From a virus (taxonomy: Duplodnaviria; Heunggongvirae; Uroviricota; Caudoviricetes), in IMG/VR virus record IMGVR_UViG_2721755721_000001: DNA of 64,000 nucleotides. One strand, 5' to 3'. Both the position numbers and the translations under genes were made by a program. Below are positions 1,616-30,816 of this stretch, one piece after another. How positions within the stretch are numbered: position 1 is the stretch's first letter; each line of letters starts with the position of its first letter. The notes under the pieces are model-generated. The model saw only the letters and a list, made by a program, of their open reading frames with translations. It ran no database searches and was not told the DNA's origin.

Positions 1616-2163
1616 TCCTGTATATCGTTAATGTCATTCAGGCGTTGCTGAAAATGCAGATGTTGTGCCGGGGTGTAAGAGTCCTGGCAATCACGAATCA
1701 TCCCGGGGTCAGGTATCAAACCGGATTCATCCAGGATCTCACGATAATCCCCGGCAATTTCAGGCGGTGTTATTGCCAGCTGGCGAACCAGAGCACTGCG
1801 TAATATACGGGACGCAACGTCAACCCCTCCGCGCCCCTTCAGGAACGGAGCCAGTGCAGATGTCAGGGCTGCCCCATTCGCCTGCATAAAATTGCTGAGA
1901 GCGGCTTCTGTGCAGGCCTCCATCAGTAAATGCTGCGCGTAAATGCATTCGCGCGCAGCACAGTTAATTTGCCATTTCAGCACATCCAGACGTTCCCGCA
2001 GTAATTCGAGCTGTCGGGCATAATCTGCTGGTTTTTCTGTGGCAGCGAGGAGAGATGTTATCTGTTGTTCAACGGCTTTTCGGCTCTCACTATGTCCGGC
2101 CCACAGAATACGGGCATTCCGAAAACTGGTAAGTGCCTGGTCAGGCGTGCCTCGGGCCGTCAT
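1612..2163 (-). CDS. hypothetical helical protein, 183 aa (Psu-like by size/position only)
   Basis: ORF translationally coupled between upstream 247-aa ORF and ogr; no motif recognised. Confidence 0.45.
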   Translation of the reverse strand: MTARGTPDQALTSFRNARILWAGHSESRKAVEQQITSLLAATEKPADYARQLELLRERLDVLKWQINCAARECIYAQHLLMEACTEAALSNFMQANGAALTSALAPFLKGRGGVDVASRILRSALVRQLAITPPEIAGDYREILDESGLIPDPGMIRDCQDSYTPAQHLHFQQRLNDINDIQE

Positions 2164-2903
2164 ACTGCTTTCTCCTTCTCAGCGAGTTCCTGACGAACCT
2201 TAATTTTATGCATAGCTGCCGGAGAGAGTTGATTACTGAAATCCAGACGCGCCGCATAATCCGGGGCAACTCCCGCCAGTTTAAACACCGGGTCCTGCTC
2301 AGGCATCGCATCGTTAGCCAGAGCCGGTCTGGTGATATGTTTATGAATAAAGTCTTTCAGCACTGTGTCCGGGTCATTAACTGAATTCACCACACCCACA
2401 ACGGCACTGGCTTCCCGGCCCATTGTGGATTTAAGCAGGCTCAGCGTCTGAATAAGCGCTTTTCCATGCGACTGCATAAAATCCTCCCAGATTTGTTTTG
2501 CGCGAATATCCACAAGAATGTTATGCGCGTGGATATACTTTCCGGCTAATTCTGCAGCTTTCTGCGGCAAAAGTGCATTTTCGCTTTCCTGAGCCGCCAG
2601 CAGCTCATCAAAATCCTCAAGCGTTTCTCGTCCCAGCGCAATTTCCGTGCGCAGTTTTTTCATTTCCTTTGAGACCACGCCCTGACTTTCACGAAACAGC
2701 GTGCGCCACTCCTCATTCAGTGTGTTCGTCGTGGCTTCCATTTCAGCGCGACGCTGGCGGATTGTCGCAATATTATCCGCTGCCGCTTTCTGCTGACGAC
2801 GTGCTTCAAGCCATGCGTTTCTGGCTGTGTTCATGGTTTCCAGTGCCCGCTGCGTTACAGCCGGAAAAGTGGAAAGGTTGTTATTTACTGCGGTATTGTT
2901 CAT
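2160..2903 (-). CDS. hypothetical coiled-coil protein, 247 aa (Sid-like by size/position only)
   Basis: ORF downstream of iteron/promoter region and primase; predicted helical/coiled-coil; no motif recognised. Confidence 0.45.
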   Translation of the reverse strand: MNNTAVNNNLSTFPAVTQRALETMNTARNAWLEARRQQKAAADNIATIRQRRAEMEATTNTLNEEWRTLFRESQGVVSKEMKKLRTEIALGRETLEDFDELLAAQESENALLPQKAAELAGKYIHAHNILVDIRAKQIWEDFMQSHGKALIQTLSLLKSTMGREASAVVGVVNSVNDPDTVLKDFIHKHITRPALANDAMPEQDPVFKLAGVAPDYAARLDFSNQLSPAAMHKIKVRQELAEKEKAV

Positions 2904-3303: not shown

Positions 3304-5976
3304 TTAACCCGGCACCTCGCTGTTGAAGACATAGAGCCTGCGGGGATTCATCTCTGGCGGGCGAATGGTTGTCTGGAGTTTGCCATCAGTGGAGGGCAGC
3401 AGGTATCCACGATCTGCGCACAGACGCGCCACCTTGCGCGGGTCAAATCCCCTGCAGATTTCTTTCCAGCCGGACGGCATGACATAGAACGTAGTGACAG
3501 CTTCCGTGCCCTGCGCGGTACTGCCTTTCTCCACCCTTCGCCAGCCCACCATATTGCCGGGGCGGTTGCGCTCGTCATACCAGTCTGCAAAGCGGCTGTA
3601 CTGATTCGCGGTAAAGAAACTGCGAACCTGCTCCAGTGCGGCGATATCTTCCTGATTGGCGGTGTGCCCGCGATCTTTCAGCCATGCGTTCAGGCAGACG
3701 CGGGTTGCCCGCAGTGCTTCACCCTCAGGCCAGCCGGTGATACCCAGACGGGTTGCCAGTTCACCTGCCATCGCCACCAGTGCAAAGCGGTTCACAGCCC
3801 GGCCCACCTGATTGCCTGCATCTTTCGGAGTCAGGGCGGCAGCATATTCCTTCATCAGCGATTTTGCCTGTGCCGTTAGTCCGTTAAGATCAGCGGTCAG
3901 TGCTTTCAGCCACTCCCGGAACGGCGAACCGTAGTAGCAGGACGTGGCCCATTCAAGATGCTCTGCCAGAGCCTTGCCGCTGTCGAAGCCGTGCAGCTCC
4001 TCAAAAACGCCAAACTTCCCGGAATCGCTGGGGATCTGGATCATCCTGACTTCCATCCCGGCAAAAGTACGCTCACCGGCCTTTGCCGCATGTTCGGTCA
4101 GAGACAATTCGCCAGTTGAAAAGAACAACAGGCGCCACTGCTTACGGGTACGCAGCTCACCGTCCGTACCGGCACGGCCCTTGCCCTGACCGTTTGCCAG
4201 CATGTAGGCGATATTGCCTGCCTCGCGTCCGTCAACTTCCCGGATCTCATCAAGCATCATGGCGGCATCGTTGCGGCGGCTGGCGCATCCCTCCAGTGCG
4301 TTGCCGGTGGCCCGCCATGTCTGCCAGTAGTCAGGCCCGCCGCAGACGGAGGTTGCTGCTTTCATGGTGGTGGTCTTACCGTCTGTCGATTCCCCTTTGA
4401 GGTGGTAGCCGCCGCCGTCCATACCAACCAGCCGTAACAGTGGTGCAGCAAAGGCCAGGCTGACAGCAAATGCCACGCGGGAGTTGCCGGTACAGTAGCG
4501 GGATACATGCTCCCGCCATTCCTCTGTTGTGCCCGACACGCGGAAATCACGCCCCTGCACGGAAGTGGTCTGGAGAATGACACCCTCTGCACCTTCACCG
4601 CTGACCTCATCCTGCAGGACGTAAACCTGACCATGCCAGCCAGTACGACTGACGCAGGTCACGCGGCGTTCCGGTTTACACAGTGAGATATATTCCATCA
4701 GGCGTGCGCGTGCCTCACCGGTGGTGCTGATATAAGACAGCCCGTTAACCAGCAGTACCCGGCGCAGTTCCTCACCACTGCCGCTCAGCATTTCCATCGG
4801 CATCGCCCAGCGGCGACACTCACCCCACGTATCTTCCCATTCCAGCAGTCGTCCGAAGTTACCGCCATCGGCATCGCAGGTGATTGCCGTCACGCGCAGC
4901 GGGCTGCATATTTTGACGTTCTGGATCTCCGTCTCACCGTTGCGCTGTACCTGCTTTTCATACCAGAGATATTCCTGGGTAAGACGGAACCCGTGCGGCA
5001 GTTGCGTGCGGCTTTCCCCGCAGAGTACCAGACCGTTGCGAAAGGCTTCACGGGCACGGGTAATACCGTGCTCCCGATGAAAGTCATTCCAGTCAGCCTT
5101 AATCTCTTCTGGTGGCAGCGTCATCCAGCCGCCAACAGCTTTTGCCGCCCGTTCAGCAAAGGCTCTGCCGGGATTCTCACCCCCGTCCTGAAAATCGTTA
5201 TCACCGGCGATGATAATTTTTACCTCAGGCCAGCGTGCCCGCAGCGACTGCGCCACATTGGGCAGGTTGCCCGCAGATATGGCAGCCACTACGCATCCGG
5301 CAGTGAGCTGGCTTACCGTCAGCGCCGTAGCGTAACCTTCGGTAATCACCACCTGTATCGGTGGTTCAGACGGTAACGGGCTGAGCGACACAAACGCGCC
5401 TTTCATCGTGCTGCCGGGCAGTATGCTTTTTTCACCCGTCGGGGCGATAAGCTGTGCACCGGTCACGGCTCCGGTGTTGGTCGTGAGTGGTAACAGCAGG
5501 GAACCGGCAGGAAAATCCTTACCGCTGATATGCTGTACGCTTCCGGTCAGAGAGGCCGGGTATCCGGCGAACCCTTTTCCTGTCAGATAGGCGCTTTCTC
5601 CCGTGTGGCTCTCTTTCATCAGCGCCGCCACGGTAAGACCCATGTCGCGTTTAGGGGCTTTTTGTCTGGCAGGCTTAACAGGCAGTTCCTGCATATCCGG
5701 CACATTAAGCACCTGCGCCACCTCCTGCGCAGCCTTTCTGACGTTGTAACCGGTTACGAGCTTAACCAGATCCAGACCGTCACCATTGCCACACTGGCTG
5801 CAGATCCACGTCCCGCGCCCGTCAAGGTCATCAAGGCGAAAACGATCCTTGCCCCCACATTTCGGGCAGGGACCGTGCCTGCCGTTTTCAGGTACATCAA
5901 TACGCAGCATCTGCAGAATAACGGGCCATTTCCCCCGTGCGGCGGCTGAAACCTGCGTAACCGTCTGTATTGTCAT
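3304..5976 (-). CDS. DNA primase/helicase, P4 alpha-like
   Basis: 890 aa; N-terminal zinc motif CPKCGG...CSQCG; acidic primase-like cluster IIIAGDNDFQDGGENPG; P-loop GESTDGKTT in C-terminal half. Confidence 0.85.
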   Translation of the reverse strand: MTIQTVTQVSAAARGKWPVILQMLRIDVPENGRHGPCPKCGGKDRFRLDDLDGRGTWICSQCGNGDGLDLVKLVTGYNVRKAAQEVAQVLNVPDMQELPVKPARQKAPKRDMGLTVAALMKESHTGESAYLTGKGFAGYPASLTGSVQHISGKDFPAGSLLLPLTTNTGAVTGAQLIAPTGEKSILPGSTMKGAFVSLSPLPSEPPIQVVITEGYATALTVSQLTAGCVVAAISAGNLPNVAQSLRARWPEVKIIIAGDNDFQDGGENPGRAFAERAAKAVGGWMTLPPEEIKADWNDFHREHGITRAREAFRNGLVLCGESRTQLPHGFRLTQEYLWYEKQVQRNGETEIQNVKICSPLRVTAITCDADGGNFGRLLEWEDTWGECRRWAMPMEMLSGSGEELRRVLLVNGLSYISTTGEARARLMEYISLCKPERRVTCVSRTGWHGQVYVLQDEVSGEGAEGVILQTTSVQGRDFRVSGTTEEWREHVSRYCTGNSRVAFAVSLAFAAPLLRLVGMDGGGYHLKGESTDGKTTTMKAATSVCGGPDYWQTWRATGNALEGCASRRNDAAMMLDEIREVDGREAGNIAYMLANGQGKGRAGTDGELRTRKQWRLLFFSTGELSLTEHAAKAGERTFAGMEVRMIQIPSDSGKFGVFEELHGFDSGKALAEHLEWATSCYYGSPFREWLKALTADLNGLTAQAKSLMKEYAAALTPKDAGNQVGRAVNRFALVAMAGELATRLGITGWPEGEALRATRVCLNAWLKDRGHTANQEDIAALEQVRSFFTANQYSRFADWYDERNRPGNMVGWRRVEKGSTAQGTEAVTTFYVMPSGWKEICRGFDPRKVARLCADRGYLLPSTDGKLQTTIRPPEMNPRRLYVFNSEVPG

Positions 5977-7875: not shown

Positions 7876-8757
7876 CTACCCCTTTTGTTTTAATCCCGCA
7901 TGATTAACCGCTAATCGTAATTTTCTTAAGATTTCTTGTTCATTAGTGATAAATATTGGAGGTAGCTCTCCTAAATGTTTAATTATGGCGTTAGTCCACT
8001 TTTCAGGACTTATCTCTTTTCTTTCACCACGACATTCGCTTGGGTATTTTGCTAATATATATATGGCTGCATTTAATAACCCCTCCCTATTTTTTGCATG
8101 ATGCTCAGCAGTGTTATTTAATCGCTTGGGGATTTTAGGTTCAGATGAAATTCTTTTCGTAAGTAAACTTGGCATAGGAATTCCAGTTTTTACTGATTTC
8201 CATATTAACTCTAAATCTCTTCGCATGATAAGAAGATCTTCAAATGGAATCTTAATTACCTTATTTCCTTCATATGAGGCCGTTGCCATCAAAACATTAT
8301 CTCGTATTTTTACCGGTTTAAGCCTGAATTCATAATCTGGATCTATAGCTAATCCATTTTTTATGTCACTTATCATATCATCGGCGTACCAAATACCACA
8401 GGCAAATCCTATAATTTGAAGCCCATTTTCAAAATGTTCAAAGGAATCATCTTTAAGGTCATACCATATTGTTGAAAATTCCATCTCTAGTGATTGATTA
8501 GTTAATACGGGATGAATTAAGTCAATTTCCATTTTCTGATTTTTATTGAGGAAATTAACATTAAATCTAACTGCAAGTCCATCCGCCTTGAATGCGATAT
8601 TAAAAGCGCCTATTTCGTATAGATGTAATAAATCATCAATCTCGCATTCTAATAGTCTTGAAGCGCGTTCAAATGAACAATATTCTAATGGTGGTATTTT
8701 TTTGTCAATCCATAGATTTCCTAAGAATATAGTTTCATTCTCTGTTGAATGCTGCAT
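7876..8757 (-). CDS. hypothetical protein, 293 aa; AT-rich cargo between int and alpA
   Basis: complete ORF starting 30 bp after the int stop; GC well below flanking genes; no family recognised. Confidence 0.6.
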   Translation of the reverse strand: MQHSTENETIFLGNLWIDKKIPPLEYCSFERASRLLECEIDDLLHLYEIGAFNIAFKADGLAVRFNVNFLNKNQKMEIDLIHPVLTNQSLEMEFSTIWYDLKDDSFEHFENGLQIIGFACGIWYADDMISDIKNGLAIDPDYEFRLKPVKIRDNVLMATASYEGNKVIKIPFEDLLIMRRDLELIWKSVKTGIPMPSLLTKRISSEPKIPKRLNNTAEHHAKNREGLLNAAIYILAKYPSECRGERKEISPEKWTNAIIKHLGELPPIFITNEQEILRKLRLAVNHAGLKQKG

Positions 8758-8787: not shown

Positions 8788-10122
8788 TTAATTGATAATG
8801 TTAATACCTGATAAGTCATAAGGAGCATGGAATTCGTCCTTATTTAGTTCCAGATAATTAGACCACCATTGCATCATTCTGCGGCGTTCCTGCATGTGCT
8901 GCGCAAGATGCACATATGCTGCCCGCACTTCGTTTCTTTCTTGGTGACTCATCTGCCGTTCAACTGCATCGCGTGACCAGAGTCCTGATTCGGTCAGTGC
9001 AGAGCAGGCCATCGCCCTGAACCCATGCAAGCAAACATCAGTTTGAGTGTCGTAACCCATCGTTCGCAGTGCTTTATTAACTGTGTTTTCGCTCATCGGT
9101 TTATATGGGTTGCTGTCACCGGGAAAAACCAGCAGATATTCACCACTGATTTTCCTTATATCCTCCAGTACCCCGATAGCCTGACTAGATAGCGGGACAT
9201 AATGAGCAGCCCCCATCTTTGCACCCCGATCTGAGAATTTAACCCCTGCGATCTCTTCACGTTGTCCTGGTATCGTCCATAGCCCATTTTCAATGTCGAT
9301 CTCCTCCCATCTGGCATGTCGTAGTTCGCTGGATCGCACAAAAGTGTGCAGGGAAAAGAGAACTGCTAGGCGAGTCAATGGTCTTCCCGTGTAACTTCTC
9401 GTTTTCGCTAACAGTTCAGGTAAACGTTCGAGAGGTAGTGCGGGGCGATGTCGTACTTTGGGGGCCGTAATTGCACCTTTTAGATCGTGGGCAGGGTTGT
9501 AATCGACAATTCCACGTTGCACGGCATAACGGAAGATGCTCGTCATAGTGGTTTTTACACGGCTCGTTGTGGCACCAATTCCTTTCTCAGTCATCTCAAC
9601 CAGCATCGGCATCAAGTCACGGGTTTTGAGCGTATCGATAGGCTTTGAACCGATGGCAGGAAAGAGGTGGTTTTCCATTTCTCGGAGAATTTTTTTACGG
9701 GTGATCTCTTTCCACTCAGGATGCCCCATCGTTCCACTATGCCACTCTCTGGCAACACTCTCGAACGTGGGGGAAATTGGGTCTTCCTTTTTGGGTTTCT
9801 TTGCTTCGCGAGGATCACGACCATCGGCTAGTAGTTGCCTGGCTTCATCACGCCGTTTCCGCGCTGTTGCAAGTGAGACATCTGGGTAGACCCCTAATGC
9901 CAATGTCACTTGTTTTCCATCAAAACGATAATTCATACGCCAGTATTTTCCACCAGTCTTTCGTACCAGTAGATACAAACTCCCTCCATCGGTAAGTTTG
10001 TAATCATTGGTCTTCGGCTTGGCGTTTTCTATCTGTTTGGGGGAAAGCACATTAATGGCCATATCTGTACTCATTTTGGTAAATTGATGGTATCTGCATA
10101 TCGAACTGGGGAATACCATCAC
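8788..10122 (-). CDS. int: tyrosine integrase, P4-type
   Basis: 444 aa; N-terminal arm-binding-like region (LTDGGSLYLLVRKTGGKYWRMNYRFDGK); C-terminal catalytic region with HGFRAMACSAL and late Tyr. Confidence 0.9.
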   Translation of the reverse strand: MMVFPSSICRYHQFTKMSTDMAINVLSPKQIENAKPKTNDYKLTDGGSLYLLVRKTGGKYWRMNYRFDGKQVTLALGVYPDVSLATARKRRDEARQLLADGRDPREAKKPKKEDPISPTFESVAREWHSGTMGHPEWKEITRKKILREMENHLFPAIGSKPIDTLKTRDLMPMLVEMTEKGIGATTSRVKTTMTSIFRYAVQRGIVDYNPAHDLKGAITAPKVRHRPALPLERLPELLAKTRSYTGRPLTRLAVLFSLHTFVRSSELRHARWEEIDIENGLWTIPGQREEIAGVKFSDRGAKMGAAHYVPLSSQAIGVLEDIRKISGEYLLVFPGDSNPYKPMSENTVNKALRTMGYDTQTDVCLHGFRAMACSALTESGLWSRDAVERQMSHQERNEVRAAYVHLAQHMQERRRMMQWWSNYLELNKDEFHAPYDLSGINIIN

Positions 10123-10577: not shown

Positions 10578-10600
10578 AAGAAAAAACCGCCATCAGGCGG
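10578..10600 (-). terminator. intrinsic terminator between early-left genes and xis-like gene
   Basis: minus strand CCGCC-TGAT-GGCGG then TTTTTTCTT. Confidence 0.55.
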
Positions 10601-15682: not shown

Positions 15683-15815
15683 TCTTTGGGACTCCTGGCT
15701 GATTAAGTATGTCGATAAGGCGTTTCCATCCGTCACGTAATTTACGGGTGATTCGTTCAAGTAAAGATTCGGAAGGGCAGCCAGCAACAGGCCACCCTGC
15801 AATGGCATATTGCAT
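15651..15815 (-). CDS. cIII: cIII (FtsH inhibitor)
   Basis: 54 aa [54 protein letters not shown] matches lambda cIII. Confidence 0.9.
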   Translation of the reverse strand: MQYAIAGWPVAGCPSESLLERITRKLRDGWKRLIDILNQPGVPKNGSNTYGYPD

Positions 15816-15887
15816 GGTGTGCTCCTTATTTATACATAACGAAAAACGCCTCGAGTGAAGCGTTATTGGTATGCGGTAAAGCCGCAC

Positions 15888-16436: not shown

Positions 16437-17060
16437 CTATGCGGCCTCGGAAGGAAGTCCAATCATCTTATTCAAATCTTCTACCCGTAAAGCAGGAAGT
16501 GCTGTACTTGCTTTATCTGCTTCTTTTGGTAGCAATTCTTTGCTTTCAGGCCAAACTTCAATAAGTCGCTTAACTGTTGTTACTGAGTTCAAAGCAGCCC
16601 ATACATTTGATTCGATATCCTTTTTCCTGGCTTCAAGTTTTTGTTGCAATGCGCAGATTTCATCAAACCTTTTTGTTATTTCGTGTTCTGCGTTAAACAT
16701 GCATTTATCTCTGTTAGGAGTAGGGAGCAATATATCTTCGCCGTTACCGTCTTTTCCATATGAATACCAGCCAACCCTTCTGCCAGATACAGTCAGATAA
16801 ATTGAAGTAGAACGAACATCGTATGAGTAAAATGAACATCCCATCTTTTCAAGTTCTTCACTTATAGCCATTAATCTGGATGATAACTGATCCACTTCTT
16901 CAGTTTTCTTTTTACCGCCAAACGCAACAACTCTGGCGTCAAGTGCAAGCCGGTTCTTTAACTTTGTTACTTCTTCAAGTTCGGTGAAAACCCCGGACTT
17001 AATTAAAGCGTTACGAGCGATATCCTCTTTCATTCTCGTAGTTAAGCGGATTGATGACAT
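16437..17060 (-). CDS. hypothetical protein, about 207 aa, in the ral/sieB slot downstream of N
   Basis: ORF; ATG at 17058-17060 with RBS GAGAGG is preferred over the TTG at 17120; no TM segment; no family recognised. Confidence 0.55.
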   Translation of the reverse strand: MSSIRLTTRMKEDIARNALIKSGVFTELEEVTKLKNRLALDARVVAFGGKKKTEEVDQLSSRLMAISEELEKMGCSFYSYDVRSTSIYLTVSGRRVGWYSYGKDGNGEDILLPTPNRDKCMFNAEHEITKRFDEICALQQKLEARKKDIESNVWAALNSVTTVKRLIEVWPESKELLPKEADKASTALPALRVEDLNKMIGLPSEAA

Positions 17061-17121
17061 ATTAATTCCTCTCAAATAAGTGGTTTGCTGCCTGATTTCA
17101 TTTTCTGGTGACCAACACAAG

Positions 17122-17505
17122 TCATCTTGCTGTCAGTTGTTTTGATTTCCGGTAGCCTGCCGCGTAAATGGCTACGTTTGGAAGACATACACCAGTTTCT
17201 GGTTGCTTATGTCCAAACTCATTCGCGTACACAATGGCCGCTCGCTCCAGATTGCGTCTGTATTCTTTCTGTTGCCAGATCACGTCCTGTGCCATGAACT
17301 TAATTGGCTTAGCGTCTTCTATGCGCTCAGGCGTTTCGTGAGTACCTTTAGCCTGAATCTGCGCTCTGCTTAGAGTAGGGCGGTGTAATACTTCTGAACT
17401 TATTGCTTCTTCGCGGGCCAGTACGCCGTTAGCTAATGCCTTTGCCTTTAAACGCTCACGACGACGAGAACGTGAATTGCCTTTGAACTGAGTTCTGCGT
17501 GTCAT
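17122..17505 (-). CDS. N: N-like antitermination protein
   Basis: Arg-rich N-terminal motif GNSRSRRRERLKAKA resembling the lambda N ARM; first gene leftward of the pL region. Confidence 0.7.
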   Translation of the reverse strand: MTRRTQFKGNSRSRRRERLKAKALANGVLAREEAISSEVLHRPTLSRAQIQAKGTHETPERIEDAKPIKFMAQDVIWQQKEYRRNLERAAIVYANEFGHKQPETGVCLPNVAIYAAGYRKSKQLTAR

Positions 17506-17761
17506 ATAGACCTCCTGATGAACTTTGGTGGTGTGGTAGGTGGGAGACCCATTTCGACCTGTTTCGGCCTACTTCAATTCGGCAATAGTCCCGCAGGCCT
17601 CGCCGCTTTACGTGCGACATATTCCCGTCCATGAACCCTTCACCACACCCCAAAGTTCACTTTGGTTATTGCGCTTTGTCAGCGCCGTAGATTCATATTC
17701 GAATCGTTGTATATTCACCGCCCTGGTGAGTAATGCGTCCTGCTGACGACGATAATAATGA

Positions 17762-17794
17762 ACCAATAGTTCGACATTATTAAGAACTATTGGT
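17762..17794. promoter_or_regulatory. 33-bp palindrome (11-bp perfect arms ACCAATAGTTC / GAACTATTGGT, 11-bp spacer) in the pL/oL region
   Basis: perfect inverted repeat between N and the rex-slot gene. Confidence 0.4.
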
Positions 17795-17969
17795 ACGAAT
17801 TTTGGTGATTTATTAACTCTACGAAGTATGATTCTGATATATAAGGAAATTTATTTTTGAAAATGTGGCTGATGAAGGTTATGCGGCAGGGATCATAACT
17901 GCATGGTTTAGCGAGTTACATCAACAAATACAATTGGTTATGGTGTTTTTAGGTGGGGGATCGAGAGGC

Positions 17970-17995
17970 AAAGAAAACCCGGCTCGGTGGCCGGG
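17970..17995 (-). terminator. intrinsic terminator after the rex-slot gene
   Basis: minus strand CCCGGCCACCGAGCCGGG then TTTTCTT, 14 nt past the ORF stop. Confidence 0.55.
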
Positions 17996-18008
17996 GTTAG
18001 ATTTTCTG

Positions 18009-19034
18009 TTATGGGCGAGTGATGGTTGATGCGTTTCCGTTTTCTATTACACCTGCTCGTATCGTGTAGCTTCCCAAGATTTTTACTGTCCTGTTTTCTT
18101 TCATTGCATCAAACAGTATGGCGATCTCGTCTTTATCATCTATGAACGACGTGTCCACCGAAACAGGGAAACTGTCTTCACTAGATGGTTCGCGGCAGCT
18201 TAGGGTTATCTTTTCCGCAGTACGCTTGATTCCATCAATGACTAATTCAAGGTTTCTTTCTTCTTTTTTTGCTTTTTCGATAGGGTTCTTGATTAGTTCG
18301 TGGATTTCTTTGTTAGACAGTTCAACTGTGCTTGCGCCTGATATGACAATTTTGTCAGCATCAGACGCGCCTTTTAATACCCCTGTATACGCTTTTGCAG
18401 TATGCTCTTGAATCCCTTCGGCGCGCTCTACTGCATCTATGCCCGCTTTAGCTCTAATCGCCTCAAGCATTCCGTCCCTTAATATCGTCATGCGCTCGTT
18501 TTCTGATTTAATCTTGGCTTCTTCGAGCTTTGTTTCTTCTTGCTTGACTTCTACTTCGGCTTTTTTCTCTAAGTATGATGTACCAACCCATGCACCGCCT
18601 ATAACGGTGACAGCAAACAAGAAGCATAATGTTTTTTGGCTAGGACTCATACCGTGTGTTACCTTCTCAAAGGCTTTACCGAATGCTTCAAAAAGCTTTG
18701 TTAATGCAGCAAGTATATCAGTACAACCTTCATTAATGGTAAAGATGATCTCTGCTTCCTCTTTATCTTTACCAGTTAACCTTTGAAGGTTGTCAGTTTT
18801 ATATTTTATTAGTGTGAAAACTTTATAAATTTCAGTCTGAAATTCGCATAAACCCTGAGCTAGAGGAGATGGAAGCGTTCCGTTGTAGCGAGAAGGATCA
18901 CCATAAATCTTAAAATTCACATTATTGAAGAGGTCTAACTTGATCCTGTCGATAGTGATCTCTTCGCCACCATCTAACCTTGCAAACAAAGATTCAATGT
19001 CGTCCAGACTTGAAACATTAATAATATCTTTCAT
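18009..19034 (-). CDS. hypothetical protein, 341 aa, one central TM helix; occupies the rexAB position
   Basis: complete AT-rich ORF between cI and pL; hydrophobic TLCFLFAVTVIGGAWVGTSYL; TATAAT (minus, 19065-19070) upstream; no family recognised. Confidence 0.6.
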   Translation of the reverse strand: MKDIINVSSLDDIESLFARLDGGEEITIDRIKLDLFNNVNFKIYGDPSRYNGTLPSPLAQGLCEFQTEIYKVFTLIKYKTDNLQRLTGKDKEEAEIIFTINEGCTDILAALTKLFEAFGKAFEKVTHGMSPSQKTLCFLFAVTVIGGAWVGTSYLEKKAEVEVKQEETKLEEAKIKSENERMTILRDGMLEAIRAKAGIDAVERAEGIQEHTAKAYTGVLKGASDADKIVISGASTVELSNKEIHELIKNPIEKAKKEERNLELVIDGIKRTAEKITLSCREPSSEDSFPVSVDTSFIDDKDEIAILFDAMKENRTVKILGSYTIRAGVIENGNASTITRP

Positions 19035-19114
19035 TACAACACCTTCGGCACAACCTTGCTAGTTAAATTAGTGATTATAAAAATTGGATACTTACCAGCT
19101 ATGTGACGATGAAG

Positions 19115-19822
19115 TCACGAACTTTTCAGCCACTCCCTTGCCTCGATGTCATCCAGATGGCGAGATTGCTTCAGAATACCAGCTACATACTCCACCTTTG
19201 CTACTTGATGATAAGGCAACGTTATAGGCCTGTGATCCTGGTTAATGCTTGTAAATTGGTATTCTCCATCTCTGTCATAGCCAAGAACCTTAATCATGTT
19301 GTGTCCTTCAACGGTTCTGACAAACACCTCATCACCCGGGAATACTTTGGTGTTAGGCTCAATGAGTACATATTCTCCTGATTTTATTCTGGGCCACATG
19401 CTGTCTCCTTTCACACGAAGACCAAAGGCATCTGGATCATCGCTATAAATTTTGAGCCACCCATCGCGCTCTTCGGTCATCTCGATGGCACCATCAACAC
19501 CAAGAATTGCCTCACCAACCACGCGCACTAACCCTTTTTTTAATTTGCCAACAAATGAAAGAGTATCTTCATCATTCGCTCCATTTAACGAAGTGCCGTG
19601 CTGAAGCCAAACAACATCAACGTTTAGAAATTTCGCAAGCGCATTCATTTTTTCCTGACGCGGTAAAGACTCAGCATTAAACCATTTGCTAACGCCTTTG
19701 GACGAAAGAGAAAGGGCACGGGCTATAGCCATTCCCCTACCATGTTCATCAAGACCAGCTTCTTTACAGGCTTGCGCTAGCCGCTGGGCGAATTCTTTGC
19801 GCACTTTTTCATTCTGAACCAT
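19115..19822 (-). CDS. cI: cI-type prophage repressor (HTH plus S24 LexA-like peptidase domain)
   Basis: 235 aa; N-terminal HTH region; C-terminal GDSMWPRIKSGEYVLIEPN and Lys motif typical of autocleaving repressors. Confidence 0.85.
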   Translation of the reverse strand: MVQNEKVRKEFAQRLAQACKEAGLDEHGRGMAIARALSLSSKGVSKWFNAESLPRQEKMNALAKFLNVDVVWLQHGTSLNGANDEDTLSFVGKLKKGLVRVVGEAILGVDGAIEMTEERDGWLKIYSDDPDAFGLRVKGDSMWPRIKSGEYVLIEPNTKVFPGDEVFVRTVEGHNMIKVLGYDRDGEYQFTSINQDHRPITLPYHQVAKVEYVAGILKQSRHLDDIEAREWLKSS

Positions 19823-19900
19823 GAGTACGATACTAAAGCACTTGCAAAAACTTTCAGTTCAACCATAATACGTACTGAAAGTACGAAAAAGGATATTCCT
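19823..19900. promoter_or_regulatory. cI-cro divergent promoter/operator region (OR-like)
   Basis: palindrome GTACTGAAAGTAC at 19872-19884; related ACTTTCAGT at 19850-19858; AGTACGATACT at 19824. Confidence 0.5.
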
Positions 19901-20128
19901 ATGCAAAATCTTGATGAGCCGATTAAAGGTGTCGGCATCCCTGAAGTTGCGAAGGCTTGTGGAGTTAGCGAAAGGGCTGTCTATAAGTGGCTCAAAAACG
20001 GCTTCCTCCCTAAGACTGAGTTTTTTGGGAAAACTAAATACGCATCAAAAATCGAAGAGATTTCTGGTGGCAAATATCAAGCAAGCGAAATGCTTGAAAT
20101 AAGCAAAAAGAACCTTCTGGCTGCATAA
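19901..20128 (+). CDS. cro: Cro-like HTH repressor
   Basis: 75 aa HTH protein divergent from cI. Confidence 0.7.
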   Translation: MQNLDEPIKGVGIPEVAKACGVSERAVYKWLKNGFLPKTEFFGKTKYASKIEEISGGKYQASEMLEISKKNLLAA

Positions 20129-20266
20129 GTAACACCGCTATTTTCACAATGGACATTCGTCCTACGTCGCTGACAAAGCGAGTCCCAATATATCTGACCA
20201 ACTAAGGCCATATGCGTTTCCACGCATACCTTTCAACTAGCTATTCGCTATTGGAAATCTTAAGAA

Positions 20267-23736: not shown

Positions 23737-24010
23737 TTGACGCGATGATTTATTCGGGGCTATATTCCTCACGCGCCAGCAAAATCTGGCGTCGGGATTG
23801 GCGTCCTGGATAGAGACCGCGACAGATACACGCCGCGAGCGTGTTTTTTATTGTCGTATGCACGCGCACATCTGAATTATGGTGGGCTGTGTGGGGGCGG
23901 AGAGATCCGCGCCGGTCGGTTTCCCGGTTACGCCAACCCTGCACAGTTCACCACCAGACGATTGGCGTCGTCGGTGGTGAGTTATTAAGAAACCACCAGA
24001 GGGCGTCATT

Positions 24011-28965: not shown

Positions 28966-30816
28966 ATGTCGATTAAACATTACGATGTTGTCAGGGCGGC
29001 GTCGCCGTCAGACCTTGCGGAAAAGCTGACACACAAACTGAAAGAGGGCTGGCAGCCATACGGCGGACCGGTTGCCATTACGCCGTACACACTGATGCAG
29101 GCGGTGGCTATTGAAGGAGAGCCACAGGTCGGCCCTTCATCTGAGCCGGATTGGTACTACGTCATCGTACTGGCCGGGCAGTCCAATGCCATGGCTTACG
29201 GTGAAGGGCTTCCGCTGCCGGATTCATACGATGCTCCGGATCCGCGCATTAAACAGCTGGCGCGCCGCAGTACAGTGACGCCGGGCGGGGCTGCCTGCAG
29301 ATATAACGATATTATTCCGGCTGACCACTGTCTGCATGATGTGCAGGATATGAGTACGCTGAATCATCCGAGGGCTGACCTGAGCAAAGGGCAGTACGGC
29401 TGTGTCGGCCAGGGTTTACATATTGCCAAAAAACTGCTCCCGTATATCCCGAATAACGCGGGGATCCTGCTGGTACCATGCTGTCGTGGTGGTTCGGCAT
29501 TTACCCAGGGCGCGGAGGGGACATTCAGCGAGTCCACGGGGGCCAGTCAGGATTCGGCACGCTGGGGGGTGGGCAAGCCGTTATATCAGGATCTGATTTC
29601 CCGCACAAAAGCGGCATTGCAGAAAAATCCCAAAAACGTTCTGCTGGCCGTCTGCTGGATGCAGGGTGAGTTTGACATGAGCGCCGCCACCCACGCACAG
29701 CAACCTGCGCTGTTTACAGCCATGCTGACACAGTTTCGTGCTGACCTCTCCGTGTTTAACGCGCAGTGCCATGGTGGCAGCGCTGCAGATGTGCCGTGGA
29801 TTTGTGGTGACACGACGTATTACTGGAAAAATACATACGCTACCCAATACGACACCGTGTACGGCGGGTATAAAAACAGGGAGAGTGAGGGCGTTTATTT
29901 TGTGCCCTTCATGACAGACGGTAACGGCGTCAATACCGCCACTAACGCGCCGGCAGAAGATCCGGATATTCCGGCATCAGGATATTACGGTGCGGCATCG
30001 AGAACGAATGGAAACCAGGTATCATCAAACCGCCCGACACATTTCAGTTCATGGGCGCGCAGGAGCATTATTCCGGATCGTCTGGCAACCGCTATTCTGA
30101 ACGCAGCCGGGCGCACCTCAGCCTTCATCAGTGGTAAGGCACCGGAAATCAAACCCTCGCCCGGCGGCAACACACCATCGGGTCCGTCTGCAGATACGTC
30201 CGTTCGCACAATCTCCCTGCTGCCGACAGCCGGAGAGGCTGCTGCGCAGGGCTGGACCATTAAGGACGGCGGAATTCAGTTGTCGGGTGGTGTATTTAAG
30301 ATCGCCAAGCAGAGCAATAAAACCTGGTCCCTGACGCATCCGGTGGATGACGCAATTACCCTGCTGACACAGGGCGGCAGACTGACCTGTAAGTTCCGCC
30401 TGTCAGGCGCACTGACCAACAATCAGTTCGGGCTGGGGATTTATCTGTATACGGATGCTCCCGTTCCTGATGGTGTGGCGATGACGGGTACCGGTAATCC
30501 GTTCCTGATGTCGTACTTCACTCAGACCACTGACGGCAGAGTGAATCTGATGCATCACAGGAAAGCCGGAAACACGAAGCTGGGGGAGTTCGGCGATTAC
30601 GGTAACGACTGGCAGACGCTGGAGCTGGTGTTCACCGCCGGCAGTGCCACGGTTACTCCGAAACTGAATGGAGTGGCTGGCCCGGCATTCCAGGTTATAA
30701 AAGACAGTCTGACACTGGGACTGAATGCGCTGACGCTGACGGATGTTACAAAAAATGCAGCGTATGGCGTTGAGATAGAAAGTCTGGTGCTGGAGATAAA
30801 TGCACCGGCAGCATAA
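28966..30816 (+). CDS. nanS-p: NanS-p-type prophage esterase (N-terminal DUF1737-like plus SASA/sialate O-acetylesterase-like domain)
   Basis: 616 aa; architecture and position (between Q/stx slot and holin) as recalled for EHEC prophage nanS-p genes. Confidence 0.65.
   Translation: MSIKHYDVVRAASPSDLAEKLTHKLKEGWQPYGGPVAITPYTLMQAVAIEGEPQVGPSSEPDWYYVIVLAGQSNAMAYGEGLPLPDSYDAPDPRIKQLARRSTVTPGGAACRYNDIIPADHCLHDVQDMSTLNHPRADLSKGQYGCVGQGLHIAKKLLPYIPNNAGILLVPCCRGGSAFTQGAEGTFSESTGASQDSARWGVGKPLYQDLISRTKAALQKNPKNVLLAVCWMQGEFDMSAATHAQQPALFTAMLTQFRADLSVFNAQCHGGSAADVPWICGDTTYYWKNTYATQYDTVYGGYKNRESEGVYFVPFMTDGNGVNTATNAPAEDPDIPASGYYGAASRTNGNQVSSNRPTHFSSWARRSIIPDRLATAILNAAGRTSAFISGKAPEIKPSPGGNTPSGPSADTSVRTISLLPTAGEAAAQGWTIKDGGIQLSGGVFKIAKQSNKTWSLTHPVDDAITLLTQGGRLTCKFRLSGALTNNQFGLGIYLYTDAPVPDGVAMTGTGNPFLMSYFTQTTDGRVNLMHHRKAGNTKLGEFGDYGNDWQTLELVFTAGSATVTPKLNGVAGPAFQVIKDSLTLGLNALTLTDVTKNAAYGVEIESLVLEINAPAA

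Follow-up and report, generated by a model that had tools for sequence, protein, structure and literature searches.

RexAB of phage lambda is the oldest known abortive-infection system, and its two genes occupy the interval between the repressor gene cI and the pL promoter. In many lambdoid phages, the transcript that starts at pRM also codes for accessory proteins, among them the kinase Stk of phage 933W, which is cotranscribed with cI and aborts infection by HK97, and Hex of phage 434, which is encoded downstream of cI and has a heterologous-exclusion phenotype (PMC3564112). BstA of the Salmonella prophage BTP1 is a further occupant of the cI-N interval. It is the product of a single gene (about 300 aa) tightly tied to the repressor locus in diverse Gram-negative prophages, its promoter is presumably that of the repressor locus, and it is also found with its own terminator (PMC8585504). 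As relayed there, the interval is considered a mosaic hotspot (Degnan 2007, cited via PMC8585504). Here we describe the corresponding slot in a 64,000-nucleotide stretch of DNA from a virus of the Caudoviricetes (IMG/VR record IMGVR_UViG_2721755721_000001; this whole stretch is referred to as the window). It holds a single open reading frame (ORF) for a protein of 341 aa, termed ORF341. On the basis of its position and its predicted architecture, we consider it roughly 55% probable that ORF341 acts in defence or exclusion at the inner membrane.

A preliminary description of this DNA had reported an AT-rich ORF of 341 aa at 18009-19034, located 80 bp behind cI and co-oriented with it, and all of this was borne out, including the base composition (40.4% GC for ORF341 compared with 51.7% for the window). 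Its placement of the gene in the slot between cI and pL was likewise confirmed when the sites of the immunity region were transferred from the annotated records of the 933W-like Shiga toxin (Stx) phage vB_EcoS_P22 (KU238069) and GQ499363 (Table 1). In blastn comparisons with vB_EcoS_P22, positions 19092-20200 of the window, which include cI, are 100% identical, and positions 17071-18005, which contain the terminator, OL and N, are 98% identical. The segment between these flanks is a cassette consisting of ORF341, its Shine-Dalgarno sequence and a 57-bp leader. It has no counterpart in vB_EcoS_P22, where a 2,106-bp cassette with four ORFs, including the stk kinase gene, is found at the same junctions. 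In other words, 933W-type phages have their four-gene stk cassette at exactly the place that the ORF341 cassette takes up in the window. Between related flanks, the slot of mEp506 is occupied by HicA/HicB/HicC, and that of lambda by rexA-rexB. The Timm-like terminator lies outside the cassette and is common to 933W-like, mEp506 and mEp332 phages with differing cargo; the GenBank record of mEp332 labels the corresponding terminator 'Timm'. Given this location and distribution of the terminator, ORF341 is best regarded as interchangeable cargo of an immunity-region hotspot. The hairpin and T-run that the preliminary description had attributed to the gene are thus present, but they are a shared element and not a terminator of ORF341 itself.

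Linkage to a repressor gene is not restricted to 933W-type phages. We scanned 26 upstream-neighbour proteins, i.e., the ORFs from 21 homologue loci (genomes, IMG/VR contigs and mEp332) plus the cI protein of the window, and found an HTH domain in 20 and a Peptidase_S24 domain in 19 of them. The repressors among these neighbours are mostly just 10-31% identical to the window cI. In the loci inspected, the gap between repressor and homologue amounts to about 20-110 bp; Orf11 of phi458, for example, begins 25 bp after CI. The homologue also resides directly behind the repressor in mEp332, Oceanimonas and two metagenomic phages, while in an Arsenophonus prophage it is situated between a cI-like gene and N. 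We can state that the homologues are persistently linked to unrelated repressors across phages. In three loci (L025, L026 and L029), a remnant of the 3' end of a lambda-type cI gene (…GCCAGTGGCCTGATGAGATATTCGGGTGA, at ~4940-5000) separates the homologue from a complete cI gene of a different type. This remnant is a scar left by recombination within the end of cI, through which cassettes were exchanged, and it marks the joint at which the cassette passes from one immunity type to another. With the swap against stk and the occurrence of homologues behind very different repressors, the positional argument is stronger than the preliminary description could know. Some distant members of the family sit elsewhere in phages, and others stand alone in variable chromosomal islands beside AbiEi/AbiEii, TIR, PIN or recombinase genes. 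No conserved partner gene was found across the distant loci examined, and the ORF341 protein therefore probably works alone.

The ORF341 transcript most likely originates at pRM, by read-through past cI, and ends at the shared immunity terminator. The sequence is compatible with such cotranscription, as both genes lie on the same strand, the 80-bp gap between them contains no terminator, and cI and pRM are identical to those of the stk-carrying 933W-type phage. Expression in the lysogen, which had been called plausible at the outset, is still judged plausible from this sequence context. A promoter of its own, which had also been suggested for the gene, did not hold up. The TATAAT hexamer, reported at 19065-19070, is actually located at 19074-19079; the best -35 match at spacers of 16-18 nucleotides comprises 2 of 6 positions, and a promoter scan made no call. 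In sister cassettes, the position of the hexamer is taken by TTTAAT, TTCAAT or CAACAT. Since a -35 element is lacking and the hexamer differs among sister cassettes, an independent ORF341 promoter of the sigma-70 type is unsupported and was rejected; at best, the hexamer may serve as a weak secondary promoter.

At the sequence level, ORF341 belongs to PHROG 6191 (hmmscan E = 2.5e-98, residues 5-340), and phrog_6191 was also matched by all 60 distant relatives studied. The initial statement that no similarity to a named family is recognisable has to be revised in that PHROG 6191 is catalogued, but it stands in that the function of this family is unknown. A large protein database contains 59 close homologues with at least 44% identity, all of them labelled 'hypothetical', from Escherichia, Citrobacter, Cronobacter, Klebsiella, Salmonella, Serratia, Yersinia, Dickeya and Pantoea. 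Searching 1.84 billion cluster representatives with a profile yielded 730 clusters (formed at 50% identity) at E<=1e-3, with 276 at E<=1e-10, and nearly all members are 310-380 aa long. Named members stem from Vibrio, Photobacterium, Oceanimonas, Shewanella, Pseudoalteromonas and Chromobacterium and from a Pasteurella phage. The mEp33204 protein of mEp332 is 42% and Orf11 of phi458 25% identical to ORF341. When genome contigs were scanned with a profile of the close-homologue alignment, three loci were recovered. A plasmid-borne family was rejected, as 72,556 plasmids gave a single doubtful match. The ratio of nonsynonymous to synonymous substitution rates (dN/dS) between ORF341 and its sister alleles is 0.05-0.10, which indicates strong purifying selection. 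ORF341 is a real, constrained gene, far beyond a chance ORF.

The proteins of PhiR12_1 to PhiR12_5, which are 99.7% identical to ORF341, carry the GenBank label 'T2SS GspM containing protein'. We rejected a GspM identity: ORF341 matched no Pfam family at E<=1 and no NCBIfam GspM model, and T2SSM was absent among the recurrent matches of the 60 distant members in Pfam and NCBIfam scans. Stray weak matches to DUF7947, DegS, an Rz-like spanin PHROG and HP1233 were each confined to one member or to the helical or hydrophobic segment. A profile search against PDB sequences returned only matches with E>0.1, to the membrane anchors of unrelated single-pass proteins such as MotB, PBP5, Tom20 and butyrophilin. 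The profile and Foldseek searches that had been proposed as a check at the outset gave no characterised relative. The only full-length Foldseek match in PDB and BFVD is an uncharacterised protein of Leptospira phage LE1.

The AlphaFold2 (AF2) model of ORF341 (predicted local distance difference test, pLDDT, 81.6; predicted template modelling score, pTM, 0.70) comprises an N-terminal alpha/beta domain, a transmembrane helix, a low-confidence linker, a hairpin of two long antiparallel helices and a beta-rich C-terminal domain (Table 1). In the model, the hydrophobic segment is carried by a helix spanning residues 131-148. The N-terminal domain is the best-conserved region of the family, with a mean pairwise identity of 27% as opposed to 15-19% for the hairpin and the C-terminal domain. 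Conserved positions are G45, Y50, Q66, Y78, L86, F98, G103, S/C104, Met129, G147 and D225-A226. Gly103 is 97% conserved (residues 103-104 are encoded by 18723-18728 on the minus strand), and residue 104 is Ser in 39 and Cys in 21 of the 60 distant members. Such a strict choice between Ser and Cys is typically seen where the residue is a nucleophile or a ligand. A conserved His or Asp partner for this residue was not seen in the same 60 sequences, nor does the family alignment contain an invariant set of acids and histidines that would suggest an enzyme.

The single central hydrophobic helix noticed in the preliminary description is genuine and its position is conserved family-wide. In about 56 of the 60 distant members, the alignment places the hydrophobic maximum (Kyte-Doolittle values up to 3.1) at one common position, while the sequence itself varies. 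The segment lacks charged residues over a median of 19 aa; the motif GM[ST]GxQK precedes it, and in most cases an acidic residue comes after it. Net charge of the flanks is +0.63 on the N-terminal and -0.38 on the C-terminal side, and 39 sequences favour an N-in/C-out orientation compared with 11 favouring the reverse. Because of these charges, and because no signal peptide precedes the folded 128-aa domain, the N-terminal domain is predicted to reside in the cytoplasm and the hairpin and barrel in the periplasm. We thus favour ORF341 as a predicted bitopic inner-membrane protein with N-in/C-out topology. The last ~90 residues follow the order of an oligonucleotide/oligosaccharide-binding (OB) fold. 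They gave dozens of Foldseek OB matches in PDB and BFVD with probabilities of 0.97-0.99 and E>=0.06, which are individually non-significant; at the top are ssDNA/RNA-binding RPA, SSB and tRNA-synthetase anticodon domains. SilF and the pertussis toxin B subunit also occur among the matches. Met129, within the GM[ST]GxQK motif, is kept in 59 of the 60 distant members. In front of its codon, Shine-Dalgarno complementarity exceeds that at the majority of in-frame positions (mean percentile 0.20, with 13 of 14 loci below 0.5), the loci not being independent of each other. Met129 might, speculatively, be an internal start for a short, signal-anchored isoform.

How could such a protein act? In the reading we prefer, ORF341 would be a 'moron', an accessory member of the repressor operon that is expressed in the lysogen from pRM. 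Heterologous phages that superinfect the lysogen would be stopped by its product at the inner membrane, while or shortly after they deliver their genome. The periplasmic module would interact with the DNA-delivery apparatus of the incoming phage or the host conduit it uses, and the membrane helix with its GxxxG-type packing motif would execute the block together with the N-terminal domain. We tentatively favour a non-lethal early block of the superinfection-exclusion (Sie) type, because half of the protein is predicted to be extracytoplasmic, as in Sie-type proteins; on its own, this branch is possible rather than probable. The other branch, a triggered membrane permeabilisation amounting to abortive infection, is suggested by the known cargo of the slot, which is of that type, and by the cytoplasmic domain being the most conserved; we see it as a doubtful second choice. 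A bolder version, which we deem quite improbable, has ORF341 as the founder of a new class of single-polypeptide transmembrane anti-phage sentinels with two isoforms, the full-length protein and one started at Met129. The periplasmic hairpin/OB module would then detect the genome-delivery apparatus from outside the cytoplasm, the near-invariant unit of GM[ST]GxQK motif and helix would convert detection into a response together with the N-terminal domain, and the two isoforms would set the activity in a scheme analogous to the dual starts of holin and antiholin.

The preferred defence function at the inner membrane has in its favour the exact swap with anti-phage cargo, the repressor linkage, the autonomy of distant members, the conserved membrane helix with its flank charges, the AF2 model, the AT-rich nature of the cargo and purifying selection. 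A number of observations weigh against it. Position alone is weak evidence, and the same slot holds Hex, a modulator of repressor cleavage. To our knowledge, the characterised coliphage occupants of the slot act after injection and not at entry. The best-conserved part of the protein, the cytoplasmic N-terminal domain, is needless for a pure periplasmic entry blocker. Pfam, NCBIfam and PDB sequences contain no relative of ORF341 and none that recurs among the 60 distant members. PADLOC-DB 2.0, which excludes systems described after 2023, has no match for ORF341, and the 60 distant members yielded just four single-member PADLOC matches with E values of 5e-4 to 1e-2. We found no publication on the function of the PHROG 6191 family, mEp332, PhiR12, phi458 Orf11 and UTI89_C5141 included. 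The gene is rare in E. coli, occurring in 5 of 5,426 complete genomes. Furthermore, the topology call is purely statistical. When residues 1-128 are modelled alone, the pLDDT of the N-terminal domain drops from ~83-94 to 63 and the strands 38-44, 97-100 and 106-110 are lost. Together with the pTM of 0.70 this could mean that the N- and C-terminal parts are in contact, unlike in a simple bitopic layout; the shallow alignment of 13 rows could explain the poor model of the lone domain equally well. As neither homology nor a structure match nor a paper links the family to a function, ORF341 keeps the status of an exclusion candidate.

Other explanations have to be weighed against the same body of evidence. 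In classical abortive infection by a single protein, the N-terminal domain would sense a phage product in the cytoplasm after injection, the protein would oligomerise via its membrane helix, and the inner membrane would be depolarised or permeabilised, so that one polypeptide does the job of RexA plus RexB and the cell dies while the clone is saved. This overlaps with the abortive branch of the preferred reading and differs from it in the cytoplasmic sensing. Characterised cargo of the slot is mostly of this type (RexAB, 933W Stk, BstA and HicAB-type modules), no other region of the family is as conserved as the N-terminal domain, the conserved Gly motif of the helix points to packing between helices, and distant members adjoin AbiE and TIR genes. 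The structured extracytoplasmic half of ~185 aa would, however, be needless for this mechanism, and the family offers neither invariant residues of a catalytic type nor a known sensor or effector domain nor a PADLOC match, so we regard this explanation as rather doubtful. It is very unlikely that the topology is opposite or monotopic, with a cytoplasmic OB-like C-terminal domain that binds phage nucleic acid at the membrane in the manner of lactococcal AbiP, a membrane-anchored, nucleic-acid-binding protein. The best matches of the C-terminal barrel are indeed ssDNA/RNA-binding OB folds (RPA, SSB, anticodon domains), and the high pTM and the apparent dependence of the N-terminal domain on the rest fit N- and C-terminal parts on the same side. 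The flank charges (39 versus 11) speak for N-in/C-out, export of a folded 128-aa domain that has no signal peptide is improbable, and the OB matches are weak (E>=0.06) and include the periplasmic or secreted proteins SilF and pertussis toxin B subunit.

ORF341 may also serve the prophage or its host in a way unrelated to defence, be it as a lysogenic-conversion or envelope factor (envelope stress, colonisation, bacteriocin tolerance), in a Hex-like tuning of induction or as a transmembrane input of the genetic switch. A cytoplasmic domain, one helix and a periplasmic domain make up a layout for transmembrane signalling, an architecture known from RodZ, anti-sigma factors and ToxR-like proteins. 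Strong purifying selection and the lack of a hypervariable domain are in agreement with such a role. Hex, encoded at the same position of the pRM operon, lowers spontaneous induction (PMC3564112). In a promoter-trap screen (DFI-seq) of uropathogenic E. coli in bladder epithelial cells, UTI89_C5141 of E. coli UTI89, similar to mEp33204 according to the GenBank note on the latter, was up-regulated (rLogFC 1.65), as were many neighbouring genes of its prophage that appear in the same list. On the other hand, distant members occur where there is no surrounding prophage, the precise exchange with known anti-phage cargo fits the pattern of a defence hotspot better, and a specific partnership between ORF341 and cI is improbable because the linked repressors are so dissimilar to the window cI. 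Taken together, we consider a role outside defence unlikely. A spurious or decaying ORF, finally, might be suspected from the rarity of the gene in complete E. coli genomes and from one truncated homologue copy (H45 / P0039). This idea is effectively refuted by the conservation of the gene, i.e., by the dN/dS values and a length of ~310-380 aa that is maintained across ~730 clusters, and also by the confident AF2 fold and the good ribosome-binding site.

Several further features of the window deserve mention. The region from 1 to about 10500 is a separate P4-like satellite or integrative element, and similarity to Stx-phage-type prophages of other E. coli genomes starts at 10581. P4-like satellites carry defence cargo near the integrase region, and the integrase gene of the element in the window is adjoined by a 293-aa ORF (Table 1). 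In the pL operon, directly downstream of N, a gene at 16437-17120 (minus strand) encodes a 227-aa protein with the Pfam domain Nmad5 (nucleotide modification associated domain 5; E = 1e-71), which also belongs to PHROG 1965, a family of unknown function. Two RNA elements scored above the Rfam gathering score: a lambda cIII thermoregulator element at 15770-15828 on the minus strand (88.5 bits), and an isrK / C4-antisense / a1b1 cluster (P1/P7-type antisense immunity RNAs) at 23760-23958 on the plus strand in the nin region. After a gap of ~540 bp, a 616-aa esterase with DUF1737, SASA and DUF6645 domains is encoded at 28966-30816 (plus strand). We take it to be a NanS-p-type enzyme, which Stx phages encode downstream of stx.

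Table 1 Features of the ORF341 locus and of the left-end element, in coordinates of the window
Feature	Position	Strand	Description
Psu-like protein	2160-2903		left-end element
Zn-ribbon/Toprim/DUF927 primase	3304-5976		left-end element
293-aa ORF	7876-8757		no Pfam match; adjoins integrase
Integrase	8788-10122		left-end element
Antiterminator N	17122-17505	-	Pfam N_peptide, E = 2e-15
nutL	17671-17737	-	transferred from annotated 933W-type records
OL1 (pL region)	17759-17774		exact match to annotated site of 933W-type records
OL2	~17781-17796		placed approximately from inverted repeat; no exact match
Timm-like immunity-region terminator	17978-17995	-	GC-rich hairpin followed by T-run
Cargo cassette	18006-19091	-	1,086 bp, ~40% GC; boundaries from blastn
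ORF341	18009-19034	-	341-aa product, PHROG 6191; ATG start, stop codon 18009-18011
Beta-rich C-terminal domain	18012-18353	-	residues 228-341; predicted periplasmic (AF2)
Helical hairpin	18369-18539	-	residues 166-222; two long antiparallel helices (AF2)
Low-confidence linker			residues 153-167 (AF2)
Predicted transmembrane helix	18570-18632	-	TLCFLFAVTVIGGAWVGTSYL, residues 135-155; G147xxxG151 motif
Met129 codon	18648-18650	-	inside GM[ST]GxQK, six residues before membrane helix
N-terminal alpha/beta domain	18651-19034	-	residues 1-128 (AF2: 1-125); predicted cytoplasmic
Shine-Dalgarno-like GAAGGTG	19040-19046	-	6-12 nt 5' of ORF341 ATG; from sequence
TATAAT hexamer	19074-19079	-	inside cassette
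cI repressor	19115-19822	-	933W immunity type; 235 aa, HTH_3 and Peptidase_S24
OR3-OR2-OR1 with pRM and pR	19815-19885		exact matches to operators annotated in GQ499363 and KU238069

A widespread and constrained family (~730 clusters from Gammaproteobacteria and Betaproteobacteria) that has no known domain thus fills the slot of RexAB, Stk and BstA. Should ORF341 prove to be an exclusion protein, the defence repertoire would gain a new fold and, probably, a new mechanism at the level of the envelope, with relevance to phage therapy against lysogens of E. coli, Klebsiella, Salmonella, Cronobacter and Yersinia. Without a role in defence, the locus would be a conspicuous failure of the 'defence hotspot' logic. 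The matter is directly testable, since isolated carriers on K-12 or E. coli C hosts have been deposited (PhiR12_1 to PhiR12_5 and mEp332).

The nearest described relatives of ORF341 are the members of PHROG 6191 in PhiR12_1 to PhiR12_5, mEp332 and phi458, in which the gene likewise directly follows cI; none of them has an assigned function. Among characterised systems, lambda RexA/RexB share with ORF341 the slot from cI to OL/pL, the orientation, expression from pRM (predicted for ORF341) and the end at the immunity terminator, and action at the membrane is plausible for both. RexAB is encoded by two genes and RexB is a multi-pass protein, whereas ORF341 is a single gene with one predicted membrane helix. 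Homology was rejected, because hhalign of the 60-sequence family profile gave probabilities of 0.7% for RexA and 0.2% for RexB, in full agreement with the early remark that no similarity to these proteins is recognisable. Stk of 933W, a tyrosine/serine-threonine kinase, is allelic cargo with the same flanks; it is a soluble protein with a kinase domain and part of a four-ORF cassette, while ORF341 is predicted to be membrane-anchored, stands alone in its cassette and contains no protein kinase domain according to Pfam. With BstA, ORF341 has in common the single gene and the repressor linkage, and it differs by its membrane helix and by having no Pfam domain. BstA possesses a KilA-N domain, lacks a membrane anchor and acts at phage DNA replication sites.

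Sie2009, Ltp, Sim of P1, Glo of K139 and gp15 of HK97 are membrane or periplasmic superinfection-exclusion proteins. Proteins of this kind are expressed from the prophage, reside in the envelope and are each the product of one gene, which in several cases lies next to a repressor gene, and by prediction ORF341 is similar in these respects. We know of no conserved cytoplasmic domain of ~128 aa in these proteins, and sequence similarity to ORF341 was not found in any library used. SieA of P22 is an inner-membrane protein of 162-164 aa with three helices and the motif FxRYPxEAxxFNK, encoded between genes 16 and 9 (PMC10883804). An identity with SieA was rejected on the basis of architecture, as ORF341 has 341 aa and one hydrophobic segment and is encoded in the immunity region; the SieA motif itself was not searched for. 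Hex is a small, soluble protein whose gene partly overlaps cI and which inhibits RecA-mediated cleavage of the repressor; it has no architecture in common with ORF341 and no similarity was detected between the two. ORF341 resembles RexAB, Stk, BstA and Hex by position and probable regulation and is none of them by membership, and we rate it as a putative accessory or exclusion gene of the repressor operon that is built, as judged from the models, on an undescribed combination of folds.

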